From the IMG/VR virus record IMGVR_UViG_3300037067_007156, positions 461,519 to 525,518 of that record: a stretch of DNA of 64,000 bases. One strand, given 5' to 3'. The notes under the pieces are model-generated. The model was not told the DNA's origin. It was given only the letters and a program-made list of their open reading frames with translations, and did no database searches. Each line of letters opens with the position of its first letter. Position 1 is the stretch's first letter. The DNA comes from a virus (taxonomy: Duplodnaviria; Heunggongvirae; Uroviricota; Caudoviricetes). Position numbers and translations under genes: made by a program. Positions 24,770-32,025 of this stretch are shown here, piece after piece.

Positions 24770-24949
24770 ACTTTCAATATCGTATCGAATTAATCCGTAT
24801 AACTTCGGGTTTATAAACTATACCGCTTGGTATGTGTTGGGTGGTTTATCAGCACTAAATTAAATTTAAAAACGAAATTTACGTATAACTTAATAAAAAC
24901 TTACATATATTTGTTGTTACGTTTTAGTAAAAATTAAATAATTGATGAT

Positions 24950-25108
24950 ATGGAACTGGATGAAAAACAAAAACTTTTTAGAGATAAACTCAAAAAAGCG
25001 GTAATTGATGGTAAAACAAGTATGTTTGGGAGAGAACGAACTGATGAAGAAAAGTTTTTGTTCAAACAAAAGATGTTAAAGTTATATGCTGATGGTAAAG
25101 GTATTTAA
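24950..25108 (+). CDS. small cassette-borne hypothetical protein (52 aa)
   Basis: MELDEKQKLFRDKL...DGKGI, read from sequence (below the ORF-track cutoff). Confidence 0.5.
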   Translation: MELDEKQKLFRDKLKKAVIDGKTSMFGRERTDEEKFLFKQKMLKLYADGKGI

Positions 25109-25167
25109 TTTATATTAAACATAAAATGGTGGTATATACTGATTTTTAACCGATTTAAAACAACGAC

Positions 25168-25518
25168 ATGATAACTGAACAAGATTTACATGAATACAAT
25201 AAATGGCTTATGGAAGTATGGAATCCGAACCAACTTTATATACCATTTGGAATAGATGCACCAAGAGCTTTTTTAACCTACAAAACTAAGGTTAAAAATT
25301 TGGATATACCACGTGTTATAAACTGGGTGGCGGTAAAAGATAAATTACCACCAAGACCAGATGAAGATTATTTAGTAGTAATGCGTAACAAGAATAAGGA
25401 GGGCGGAATTGCTTTGCAGGATGTTAAAAACTTTACAAGTGATGGAATTTGGGTAGGTGGTAATAATTGGGAAGATGTTGTGGCGTGGGCTGAACTTCCT
25501 GAGCCGCCTTGTTTATAA
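25168..25518 (+). CDS. fusion ORF: loop-encoded N-module plus DUF551-like C-module
   Basis: KNLDIPR-V junction, then WVAVKDKLP...VVAWAELPEPP. Confidence 0.75.
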   Translation: MITEQDLHEYNKWLMEVWNPNQLYIPFGIDAPRAFLTYKTKVKNLDIPRVINWVAVKDKLPPRPDEDYLVVMRNKNKEGGIALQDVKNFTSDGIWVGGNNWEDVVAWAELPEPPCL

Positions 25519-25597
25519 TGTCCGCAGGTATGGTTAGTTGCATGTTGAATAACCAACTAACTTTAATACGAGTGATAAACTTTAAAATATAGAAATA

Positions 25598-25873
25598 ATG
25601 AGCGATTTTAAACCAACACTTAAACAAATTGAGTTATATAAGGAACTCAGGAAAATAACAGAACCACATCACATGTATGCAGACCAAATAATGGCTATTG
25701 CAGAATACATAGATGCTGAATTTATACACAAAAGTAAAGCGAATGGTGTTAATACGAGTGAAAGGCAATTAACTATACCTGATGTTAGCAATCAGGTTTG
25801 CCAACATCAAAAACGCCAATGGATACCAGAACTCAACAAAGATTTATGCTTAAACTGTGGAACGCTCATTTAG
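25598..25873 (+). CDS. fusion ORF: loop-encoded N-module plus short Zn-ribbon C-module
   Basis: QLTIPD-V junction, then CQH...CLNCG. Confidence 0.7.
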   Translation: MSDFKPTLKQIELYKELRKITEPHHMYADQIMAIAEYIDAEFIHKSKANGVNTSERQLTIPDVSNQVCQHQKRQWIPELNKDLCLNCGTLI

Positions 25874-25996
25874 GAAAACTTGTTGCTAACATGTATATAT
25901 AAATTTTACATTTTAACTATTTGATTTATAAATAATTAGTTTGATATATTTTTAAAGATTTGGCTTGAATTTAATAAAACATGGTGCGTGATTATC

Positions 25997-26239
25997 TCAA
26001 TTAAAAAATGAAATAATTATTTCTTATTAAACTTCAACCAAGATTTAACCGCTTCTTCTTGTGTCTTTTTAAATTTATGTGTAGCTTCAGGTGAAAGGTC
26101 ACCAGTTTTTATTTCTGGAAAATTTTTAGCTATAACAGTCCAAAATGCGTCATCTGCATCTTGTATAATTTTATCTAAATCAACACCATCTGAATTATTT
26201 TCCTTTATGATAATTATTAAATGTTTTAATTTTTCTCAT
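25997..26239 (-). pseudogene. frameshifted small protein of the head-targeting-motif family
   Basis: MRKIKTFNN, then one extra base; the shifted frame continues IKENNSDGVDLDKIIQDADDAFW... Confidence 0.5.
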
Positions 26240-26240
26240 A

Positions 26241-26759
26241 TTATTCACCTAATTTTTCACCATTCGGATAATACATTTCCCCATCTTTATCTATTTTAAA
26301 AATAGTTCCAGAATGTGGACTTATCATTAAAGCAAAAACATCTTTCATACCTAAATATCTACTTGCAAACTTTCCATATTTTGGATTTTTAGTAGTACCT
26401 ACCCAACTGCGTAATCTTAATTCTTGCATTCTGGTCATACCATTTTTTTCATCTCGGATAGAGTATAGTGGTTTATCTTCTAACTTTTTTTCTTTGATAA
26501 TAAAATGTTTATAATCTATATATAATGCTGATTTATGATACCACCAAGGTTCATTTTCTTTTTCATCCCAAGAGGTTGTTTCATAAAAATAAACATCAAA
26601 GTCACCTTCTTTATGAATCCATTTTTTATCTAAATAAAAATTATTTAATATATGGTCAAAGGATTCTTTAGAATCAAATTGTGTAATTCTCCAGTCACCA
26701 TCTGTTTTAGATGTAGTGATTTGTTTATTGTATGCTTCGAATAATTTTAAATATTTCAT
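26241..26759 (-). CDS. putative head-packaged protein
   Basis: N-terminus MKYLKLFEAY. Confidence 0.65.
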   Translation of the reverse strand: MKYLKLFEAYNKQITTSKTDGDWRITQFDSKESFDHILNNFYLDKKWIHKEGDFDVYFYETTSWDEKENEPWWYHKSALYIDYKHFIIKEKKLEDKPLYSIRDEKNGMTRMQELRLRSWVGTTKNPKYGKFASRYLGMKDVFALMISPHSGTIFKIDKDGEMYYPNGEKLGE

Positions 26760-29739: not shown

Positions 29740-30105
29740 ATGATTTTAGATTTTGAAAAACCAAAAAAAACCCGTTCTACTGAGGAACATAATAATATGT
29801 TTTCTTCGGATAAACGATATAAAATAAAAATGAACAAAACTTTAAACAAAAAATTAAATACACAGCAAGAACAATTAGATATCCATGTTGTTATTGGCAG
29901 TTTTGTTAAGTTTTACGACTGTCAACAAGCAAATAAGGATAGAGATTTTTCAGGAGCAAACCCTAAATATTACCCTATTGGTAAAGTAATAAATGTTTAT
30001 GATTATAAATCAACATTTGGTTATACAGATAGGGTTTGTGATATACAAATAGGTGAACGCATTAGCAAGTCTCATTTTATAAGAGGTGTTGAAATTATTT
30101 CTTAA
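29740..30105 (+). CDS. cassette fusion ORF
   Basis: QEQLDIHV-V junction at 29890. Confidence 0.6.
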   Translation: MILDFEKPKKTRSTEEHNNMFSSDKRYKIKMNKTLNKKLNTQQEQLDIHVVIGSFVKFYDCQQANKDRDFSGANPKYYPIGKVINVYDYKSTFGYTDRVCDIQIGERISKSHFIRGVEIIS

Positions 30106-30140
30106 AAATATCTATAACGGTTGCTATAATTAAATTTATT

Positions 30141-30350
30141 ATGACATTAGTGAATAGTTTAAAAGCGGAAATTGGCGATACGTTAATTGCTAATTATAAC
30201 AACGGAATTTGGGAAAAAAATGATGTTTGTATATTAATCGAAAAATCACCTGAATATGAAAAATGTACTGAAGGTCAATTTTTTAATAAGACAAAAAATA
30301 TAATACACGGTGGTAATATTCAATCATTTCAATATTACAATAAACGTTGA
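30141..30350 (+). CDS. small hypothetical protein in the cassette array
   Basis: 69-aa ORF. Confidence 0.5.
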   Translation: MTLVNSLKAEIGDTLIANYNNGIWEKNDVCILIEKSPEYEKCTEGQFFNKTKNIIHGGNIQSFQYYNKR

Positions 30351-30823
30351 ATGTTGGTGTATTACTGCACTGAACTTAATTTAAAATATACACTTAAAAA
30401 TATGAACAAAATTATAAATGAAACAAAAGAGAAACGCACTATACAACGAGATAGCGAACGTGAAAAAAAATTATTTATTGGGCTAAACAACTGGAACATA
30501 AATCTCTATCGCTACATGAATTAGTTGAAAACGCTAAGTGGTTATTAGACCGTGTTCGTTAATGGTTGAAAAATATAAAATGTCTATTAAACAAAACTTA
30601 AATGGAAAATCTTGAAATGTTAAAATGTATGTCTGTTGATGAAATGGTGAAAGTAGTTAGTAATTTATCTAATGTTGATACAGCATTGGATATTATTAAC
30701 AAAGGAAAACGTAACGAAAAAGTAGAACTTGAATGGGTAGGAGATAAATTGCGGTTAAAAAATTAAATTAAACACAACGATTGAGTATTGGCGTTGTTGT
30801 CATTACAAAAATAAATTAATAGT

Positions 30824-31084
30824 ATGAAACATAAAATCATGAAAACGTTTGAAGAACACTCATCAGAATTGAATATATCTGATGTTATTAGAGAGAATAA
30901 AAATTATGATTACATCATAGTAAAAATCAAATCTGGTGCAAATTGTCCAAAAAAATATTGGAATAAAAAAGCAGTTTATGATAAACGAAATAAATACATG
31001 TTAGAATATAATAAAGGATTTGATTTGTCATATGGTTCTGTATTCATGGTAAATCCAAATGAAAAGGATTTTGAAATCGAATAA
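30824..31084 (+). CDS. cassette fusion ORF with head-targeting-like N-module
   Basis: MKHKIMKTFEEH...ELNISD-V junction at 30884. Confidence 0.65.
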   Translation: MKHKIMKTFEEHSSELNISDVIRENKNYDYIIVKIKSGANCPKKYWNKKAVYDKRNKYMLEYNKGFDLSYGSVFMVNPNEKDFEIE

Positions 31085-31134
31085 TTTTTATTCTCTATGG
31101 CAAGTTATAAAACGTTGCCAATTTAGAAGTACAA

Positions 31135-31425
31135 ATGTTTAATTTAAAAATAAAAGTTGATATGGAATACAAAATTCAAATAACCGATGAAGCTGGCAAT
31201 GTCCATTTATACAATGTTACCCGTAGTTCTTCTGAACCAAAATCGTTGAATGACTTCATTTTAGAAGCGTTACAAATTTCAGAAGATAAACGAAAGCTAC
31301 CATTTATAATACAATGTCCGAATGGATTAGAAGTACACCCTTTAATTAAAATGAAGTTTGAAAACTATGGTTCTCCAATATTGGGTGATAAGTTAGAAGC
31401 GATGCACGTAACTTGGCGTGATTAG
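31135..31425 (+). CDS. cassette fusion ORF
   Basis: GNVHLYN-V junction at 31216. Confidence 0.65.
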   Translation: MFNLKIKVDMEYKIQITDEAGNVHLYNVTRSSSEPKSLNDFILEALQISEDKRKLPFIIQCPNGLEVHPLIKMKFENYGSPILGDKLEAMHVTWRD

Positions 31426-31586
31426 AATTACGACTAACAGTTGCAAATATAAAACGTTTTAAAACAGAACTTGAATAGAATCAATAATATAACAATTAGT
31501 ATGAATTTTATTTTGAAATATGAATAAAATGTTTTATAATTGCTTTTATAAGTAGTAAAATAAAAATCAATCTAAAAAAAATAATT

Positions 31587-31838
31587 ATGAAAATTAAAGG
31601 AATAGTAACAAGAATTGATTCTGCTTGTTGGTCAGATGATAGAGGTAATGATAAATATGGTTATGTTTTTTATGTAAAATCAAAAGATACTGGTTTTGCT
31701 ATAAATAAAAAAACAAAGAGTGGTATTATTTTTATGAATAACATTGACAAAATATTGAATAATGAAATTGAATTTATATGTGATGAATTTGGTTATAGTG
31801 TTAAATTAACAAAACAAACTATTGATAATCTAAATTAA
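31587..31838 (+). CDS. whole-gene cassette, hypothetical protein
   Basis: ORF lies entirely within cassette 31545-31860. Confidence 0.65.
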   Translation: MKIKGIVTRIDSACWSDDRGNDKYGYVFYVKSKDTGFAINKKTKSGIIFMNNIDKILNNEIEFICDEFGYSVKLTKQTIDNLN

Positions 31839-32025
31839 TTTTTGTTTAATTACTTATAACGGTCGAGTGTAGTACAAGTAAGGGATTGCGGATTGCAAAC
31901 CTTTCAAACTATACCGACCAACAAGCGGGCTACAGCGCTTCAAATTTGCAGTAAAACCCTTATTGGTGCTACACTTTGTTAACCACCGTATTTTATTGTA
32001 TATTAAACATTTAAAATTATATATT

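Follow-up and report, generated by a model that had tools for sequence, protein, structure and literature searches.

In integrons, a tyrosine recombinase (IntI) with a PF13495 N-terminal domain works with a fixed, non-hairpin site beside its own 5' end and with hairpin sites (attC) of free sequence, which are bordered by AAC and GTT cores and separate cassettes with complementary ends. IntI cuts within AAC, at R' on the bottom strand or at R'' on the top strand, and the more stable strand is preferred (PMC5027507). Bacteroidota are among the phyla listed with integrons (PMC8618304), phages of Bacteroidota, including Polaribacter phage P12002L, carry clusters of attC sites lacking integron integrases (CALINs; PMC9892861), and an attC site embedded in a protein has been engineered for IntI1 (PMC7439510). 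Here we analyze a 64,000-nt stretch of DNA (the window, C1:461519-525518; positions without prefix are those of the window) from a complete virus record of 639,979 nt with direct terminal repeats and a GC content of ~25% (genome label G000). A preliminary description of the window had reported, at 24916..31984, integron-like cassettes that recombine inside genes. We consider it probable that the feature consists of decayed integron-like cassettes, in which the routine mobile unit is a hairpin together with the leader (the part of a reading frame that starts in the hairpin loop) and the body behind it, moved at AAC, and in which a rarer exchange at GTT re-pairs leaders and bodies in frame. The reading is built on what comparison among relatives establishes, namely the site geometry, covarying stems, the tie to a recombinase family, an attI-like AAC, AAC breakpoints between near-clonal phages and reassortment at a valine (Val) codon.

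The system works like an integron but fails two of its defining features, the IntI insertion and a gene that is co-oriented with attC and complete in the cassette body. It resembles integrons in the components named above (the fixed site being seen in the phage loci), in exact exchange in AAC and in a more stable strand that is probably the preferred one. It differs in a recombinase that is without ~50 residues of the IntI insertion and stays below the TIGR02249 cut-off, in asymmetric spacers (5-7 versus 1-4 nt), in genes that stand behind their hairpin, would be antisense to the site and often have their start codon in the loop, with a frame that runs on across the inverse core, and in the orientation of the recombinase gene, which is co-oriented with the cassette genes in phages and convergent with them in bacteria. 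The phage CALINs, compared by their description, resemble the present arrays as clusters of the attC type in Bacteroidota phages that include small genes and methylases, but the text of that report describes no recombinase of the present family, and its main text contains neither "in-frame" nor "start codon" (PMC9892861). The synthetic protein-embedded attC, which was put forward as a means of shuffling modules, likewise places a structure-specific site within a reading frame (PMC7439510), whereas the present sites are natural and have the start codon in the loop. A literature search gave no account of natural read-through or of the pairing of recombinase and array; subscription journals lay mostly outside that search, and the supplements of PMC8776804 and PMC9892861 could mention arrays.

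Recombinase and hairpin arrays in related loci

Sequence comparison assigns the sites to an integron-like system that occurs in Bacteroidota and in their phages. The recombinase was compared in the best 80 viral loci of 202 relatives and the best 80 bacterial loci of at least 554. Full-length proteins are mostly 263-269 amino acids (aa) long in viruses and 344-388 aa in bacteria and contain both PF13495 and PF00589; at the IntI4 insertion they have ~36 residues compared with ~85 in 2a3v. TIGR02249 is matched in two pieces with 154-210 bits, below the cut-off of 265, in four of four proteins. The best profile match is NF040815, with 221-222 bits for the bacterial proteins (just above the cut-off of 220) and 183-186 bits for the viral ones (below it), and the cut-offs of the XerC/D profiles are missed. 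The best match to NF040815 and the missing insertion are shared with XerA and XerC/D, from which the present recombinase differs by its place at the end of hairpin arrays with cassettes gained and lost.

The arrangement of hairpins around the gene is strongly biased. Hairpins were found in 54/80 viral loci, 227 of them co-oriented with the recombinase gene and 12 opposite to it, and 224 of the 227 are located 5' of the gene. The bacterial loci, mostly of Bacteroidota (36/80 with hairpins), show 93 opposite and 10 co-oriented hairpins, with 88 of the 93 on the 3' side. When left and right spacers are plotted against each other in the related loci, a sharp ridge appears where left minus right equals 3-4 (N5-7/N1-4); the detector required TAAC and GTTA cores, and the core match is therefore no independent test. 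Of 47 viral loci with a full-length gene and an upstream hairpin, 27 have a last body whose terminal AAC is no more than 150 nt away from the start of the recombinase gene, in most of them 39-55 nt ahead of it, and conservation is seen only downstream of this attI-like AAC. A homologue of the window's 31135 cassette (L008) and a recombinase locus (L075) adjoin on one contig. In Cellulophaga phage Ingeline_1, where the recombinase is present, no hairpin array was detected within 13 kb around the gene.

The stem of the 31135 family covaries. Across 14 sequences 94% of the cells are paired and 7 pairs have changed on both sides, and none of 500 shuffles was as high, a control that is inflated by relatedness. 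Since the encoded peptide changes along with the covarying stem, it is the pairing of the DNA, and not the peptide, that constrains these residues. This covariation, together with the geometry and the recombinase tie, supports the integron-like, structure-based nature of the sites that had been proposed at the outset. The commonest viral family is a minimal hairpin of 46 nt (L041 and 19 others) found in 20 flank contexts.

The genome's single PF00589 match is a C-terminal fragment at C1:206020-206439, so that, as far as tested, the window is indeed without a recombinase, as had been stated. An intact hairpin with its cassette (C1:205666-205991) immediately precedes the fragment. Homology of the fragment to full-length relatives starts at an AAC with a cassette-like end before it, which suggests that the 5' half was lost in one event of ectopic AAC exchange. 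The suggested search for an IntI-like tyrosine recombinase in phage or host has thereby given a truncated copy here and full-length copies in relatives, but copies without the IntI insertion. The attI-like site is absent in G000, its recombinase is truncated, and the array is probably inert unless an enzyme from the host or a co-infecting phage acts in trans.

Exchange at AAC and at the Val codon

In a search of deposited phages, the recombinase was found in the cultured Polaribacter phages Freya_1-10 (38.5% identity). Six isolates were compared with Freya_10, leaving out Freya_3, _4 and _7 (lengths equal to _2, _2 and _6), and gave five missing stretches and one extra unit of 472 nt. In all six the breakpoint coincides with an AAC and shows microhomology of 3-4 nt, and in five it is the AAC that precedes the recombinase gene; one whole leader+body fusion gene is absent from Freya_9. 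Among the Danklef isolates, likewise cultured Polaribacter phages, a methylase cassette of 781 nt is present in Danklef_1 and _5 and absent from Danklef_2-4, with the break at TAAC. Within species, the array differences thus fall at AAC in 7/7 cases and never at GTT, and judging from these genomes the gain and loss of cassettes in cultured phages is exact to the core triplet. The paper describing Freya (PMC8776804) takes the gene as a sign of a temperate phage, and the words "integron" and "cassette" do not occur in its article text.

Two side observations concern these phages. The Danklef recombinase (L225-L229) is annotated solely as a short 3' piece just before an HNH gene, and the one exact cassette difference among the isolates hints at a trans-acting enzyme or an older event. 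In Freya_6 (L220:464-935) a hairpin loop holds a complete gene of 71 codons including its stop, and a second open reading frame (ORF) lies in the body.

The linkage between hairpins and bodies points in the same direction. A shared body end retains its downstream hairpin in 1/22 pairs, and a shared body start retains its upstream hairpin in 9/12, as counted after dropping 18 elements whose loci had been retrieved by the 31135 query itself. In 18/23 loci the leader of 31135 is accompanied by its body, and 19 sequences (the 18 loci and the window) show 17 upstream and 15 downstream neighbour clusters. Body ends are complementary at 7.0/10 positions compared with 3.4 for the hairpin's own flanks (167 viral pairs), which fits crossover at either core and cannot decide between AAC and GTT. 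From the AAC-only breaks within species and the linkage counts we conclude that ordinary excision and re-insertion would move whole genes and that fusion is secondary. The combinatorial fusion proteins foreseen in the preliminary description therefore stand as far as many leader/body pairings at Val are concerned, but not as the product of routine moves.

Over longer times, as the comparison of homologues shows, leaders and bodies do reassort at the Val codon. When the modules were compared separately, partner swaps exactly at the Val codon, as had been anticipated, were found for the 25168, 25598 and LNISDV leaders and for the 29890 body. The 62-residue leader of 25598 precedes five bodies among seven proteins that have the whole leader and the junction motif, and these change at Val or at the following residue. 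The 25168 leader is joined to 36 body clusters in 40 proteins, one of which (P0010) diverges from the window protein directly past Val, and the LNISDV leader has four other bodies in five loci. Conversely, 22/38 homologues of the 29890 body start at the same Val, under nine leader clusters including that of the 41114 leader, and most of the remainder are free-standing genes. A search for related loci with the 25598 protein returned 0 loci. Between species, Freya_10 and Danklef_5 differ by three AAC breakpoints and two GTT breakpoints; at one of the latter an identity of 1748 nt stops exactly at GTT, in non-coding DNA at the far end of the array, and at the other, bodies that are 93% identical stand behind hairpins that are 63% identical. 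In 187 viral hairpin families, a loop ATG whose frame stays open for 25 or more codons beyond GTT lies in frames 0/1/2 in 63/21/6 cases (63 versus 21, p = 2.5e-6; frame 2 often opens with a stop), compared with an in-frame loop start in 2/65 bacterial families (p = 1.2e-7 versus viral).

With 13-30 residues, the majority of leaders are short, and their role is probably to provide a start codon. A minority have 50-62 residues, including those of 25168 and 25598, and are small conserved genes gaining variable tails; the two in the window stand alone elsewhere (L192, L205). The 25598 leader is flanked by 13-nt direct repeat copies (25563, 25749), which suggests that it was inserted into a standard short hairpin. 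The direct repeat (25563-25591 and 25749-25777) brackets the leader, and deletion of the DNA between its copies would leave the common 85-nt hairpin class. Two further patterns were noticed. In P0028-P0036 one leader is mostly followed by VVVPKGTL and then by unrelated tails of 15-25 residues rich in CxC/CxxC, and in L026, L027 and the 31545 segment of the window the body termini are common and the interiors differ, as in a third, intra-body kind of exchange.

Strand choice and competing explanations

The recombinase would act on folded single strands and cut in AAC like IntI. Of 183 untied viral families, 159 have the more stable fold on the strand reading AAC..GTT (24 the other way), and since the routine junctions also lie at its AAC, the coding strand would be the one that the enzyme prefers. 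Seen from the integron side, the genes would then run antisense to the site, beginning in its variable loop and leaving via the inverse core (GTT). With the other strand folded in both partners, the crossover would fall at GTT and the body would take the leader of the site that it enters, with the fixed frame keeping the product translatable. Exchange at GTT by the same recombinase on the opposite strand is in our opinion likely, as a minority route.

Several observations weigh against the reading of whole-gene moves at AAC with rarer GTT exchange. The tie between recombinase and sites is a comparative one, the enzyme behind the GTT exchanges is a putative one, and the missing insertion is said to be essential for integron function (PMC8138268). 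Contigs of this genome, from which rare variants are dropped, showed no circle and no rearranged junction; in the X1-X3 contigs there was no trustworthy rearranged joint at the core (joint sides were 20-24 letters or off-core), a search that decides nothing because contigs drop rare variants. The junctions of Freya_1, _2 and _8 coincide with record ends, so that assembly may contribute, and the other three are internal. Of the nine pairs sharing hairpin and body, six involve one very common 46-nt hairpin, and 268 hairpin-sharing pairs are alike in neither flank, which repeated creation of cassettes would also give. An eighth protein with the 25598 leader, P0008, departs from it ~8 residues before the motif, several distant proteins with the 25168 leader are without the junction motif, and some bodies are alike in their first and last 15-25 nt yet different inside. 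Finally, the folding bias may reflect a purine skew of the coding strand, and the skew of G:T mispairs alone is weak (55 versus 41) and reversed in bacteria (14 versus 21).

Among the alternatives, it is conceivable, if rather unlikely, that the recombinase does the AAC shuffling and that the Val swaps stem from short-homology recombination between right arms by phage annealing proteins, followed by in-frame selection. The consensus of the right arms ends in T-GTT-A, RecT is encoded by Freya, and off-core breakpoints do occur (the bodies with shared termini and the chimeric hairpin before 30884), but the 1748-nt identity that stops precisely at GTT and the single body whose 22 homologues keep one start codon under nine leader clusters weigh against it, short of excluding it. 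We judge it unlikely that the same-leader/different-body pairs date from the birth of cassettes, when a common hairpin was joined to fresh DNA or ordinary small genes, with leaders as a by-product and no swapping. Free-standing bodies and leaders (L020, L022-L024; P0061-P0087 in part; P0089, P0091; L192, L205) fit such an origin, as does the fact that most hairpin-sharing pairs differ on both sides. However, independent captures would hardly yield a body that has the same first and last residues throughout and stands under nine leader clusters, and the near-identical Freya/Danklef bodies behind dissimilar hairpins also speak against it.

The preliminary description had taken as the mobile unit a C-terminal module with its stop, the downstream hairpin and the next N-terminal module, so that GTT is the normal crossover and each move makes a fusion. 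This is very improbable, and as the routine route it is largely refuted. The many pairings at the Val codon, the frame bias and the two Freya/Danklef GTT breakpoints would be expected from it, and the complementary body ends fit it as they fit exchange at AAC, but it is contradicted by the 7/7 events at AAC within species, by the loss of the downstream hairpin in all but one of the 22 pairs with a shared body end and by the attI-like site that is conserved from AAC onward. Chance inverted repeats in DNA of 25% GC, for which one could cite the small excess in unprofiled genome scans and the 6/10 segments at chance alone, can be put aside for the system in view of the spacing grid, the strand bias, the covariation, the recombinase tie and the exact junctions, and are the likeliest reading of 30450 and possibly of 2636.

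Remains of the array in the window

The feature exists in a worn state, most of the array having decayed in this genome (Table 1). The sequence strings cited in the preliminary description were found at their positions, and 7/7 of the ORFs that it names read the core as a single codon in frame, with the peptides as given. Its hairpins joining adjacent segments were confirmed at four junctions, where the long stem has pair probabilities on the + strand of 0.93 (25123-25317), 0.89 (25517-25786), 0.81 (31436-31547) and 0.43 (31858-31980). There is no pairing left arm before the starts at 2636, 24916, 29890, 30450, 30884, 31216 and 41156 (stem scores 4-12 compared with 30-39); before 31216 a left arm is recognisable yet non-folding (pair probability 0.01, + strand). 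The AAC-N5-stem-N2-GTT geometry holds in three of the four stems as regards spacing, but one is N3/N2 with an AAA core and another has a TTT right core. Loops hold the ATG of the next ORF in the hairpins of leaders 25168 and 25598 only, the other two intact hairpins being without a leader ORF.

Table 1 Cassettes, hairpins and leader/body fusions of the window.
Feature	Position	Strand	Evidence and state
Possible decayed body, own ATG	2636..2866	+	No leader, no upstream stem; ends at chance (0.37)
Probable decayed cassette body, ORF 24950-25108	24916..25125	+	Upstream stem gone; 8/12 terminal matches, chance-level alone (0.25)
Hairpin, 23-bp stem 25129-25151/25290-25312	25123..25317	+	Left core decayed to AAA, spacing N3/N2; loop with ATG and 49-codon leader of ORF 25168; 83% match to intact hairpin in locus L194
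Leader + DUF551 body	25168..25518	+	Body DNA 25315-25519, complementary ends; Pfam DUF551 domain begins 3 residues past Val codon
Hairpin, 17-bp stem 25525-25541/25765-25781, 270 nt	25517..25786	+	N5/N2; loop with 62-codon leader of ORF 25598; competing local alternative fold
Leader + 29-residue CxxC body	25598..25873	+	Body DNA 25784-25890, complementary ends
Leader + body, left arm lost	29740..30118	+	Right arm and GTT at 29890 kept; body-end AAC 30116-30118; L025
Claimed decayed copy, core GAT at 30450	30402..30524	+	Unsupported: no stem, ends at chance (0.62)
LNISDV leader + body	30824..31098	+	Right arm kept; left arm non-pairing; body occurs as a gene of its own in P0089 and P0091
Whole cassette: decayed hairpin 31096-31218, ORF 31135-31425, AAC 31436-31438	31096..31438	+	Leader+body linkage; stem covariation
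Fusion-free cassette: hairpin 31436-31547, ORF 31587-31838 (own ATG), AAC 31858-31860	31436..31860	+	Stem 31444-31461/31525-31542, N5/N2, right core TTT
Hairpin, 22-bp stem 31866-31887/31954-31975	31858..31980	+	N5/N2; best-preserved in genome; no read-through leader ORF
LNTPVV leader + body, left arm lost	41114..41321	+	blastn E 2.7e-13 to L025 hairpin; leader family elsewhere precedes 29890-type body

Ten segments with complementary ends had been listed. Tested against 1200 random GTT[AG] starts from the genome, those at 25315 (0.004), 25784 (0.012) and 31545 (0.012) lie above chance, 31216 is borderline (0.083), and the other six are at chance when taken alone (0.25-0.88). By homology, 29890, 30884, 31216 and 41156 are rescued as decayed members of the array, but 30450, which had been described as a decayed copy, and 2636 are without support as fusion sites. 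The proposed genome-wide check of the pattern had a mixed outcome. A plain AAC-N5-stem-N2-GTT scan of the 640-kb genome, with 35 spacings on both strands, found N5/N2 no commoner than other spacings, and an ungapped scan for cassette ends gave 30 pairs compared with 11, 22 and 17 in shuffles, with the window's segments absent among them. A profile trained on the related loci, however, placed its top three matches in the genome (47.9, 45.9 and 30.7) all within the feature, and its maxima in four shuffled genomes were 24-30.

Rfam contains structured RNA families such as Flavo-1; the window gave no relevant Rfam match at E ≤ 1 and five hairpin-rich loci gave none at E ≤ 0.01. In Pfam and PHROGs, DUF551 was the sole named module among leaders and bodies. 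The site at 30773-30884 is apparently chimeric: its left arm comes from one hairpin family, its loop and right arm from that of LNISDV. Outside the window two more cassette remnants were seen, at C1:56270-56630 and C1:450317-450640, the latter comprising a hairpin and, behind it, a 41114-family leader joined to a different body. A CRISPR-like mini-array (24290-24461; three 34-nt repeats, of which two are identical and one is degenerate, with spacers of ~32 and ~38 nt) sits 450 nt ahead of the cassette feature, and an exact 27-nt tandem duplication (24530-24583) lies within ORF 24476-24769.

As a tentative proposal, somewhat more doubtful than not, we suggest that this is an undescribed system in which a recombinase without the IntI insertion would use the two strands of its sites for whole-gene moves on the one hand and Val-codon swaps on the other, a natural device of Bacteroidota phages for shuffling domains at the level of DNA, which could be watched in Freya and Danklef. 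The findings indicate that an integron-like system is widespread in Bacteroidota and in their phages, with a recombinase that is without an insertion thought essential for hairpin recombination, and the cultured, near-clonal Freya and Danklef phages, in which it appears active, make it testable at the bench. A recurring N-terminal motif of small phage proteins is explained as a translated hairpin arm, and the occurrence of the same genes both on their own and within cassettes is relevant to the origin of gene cassettes. Should the route via the opposite strand be true, the in-gene module shuffling proposed for synthetic attC sites would already exist in nature.

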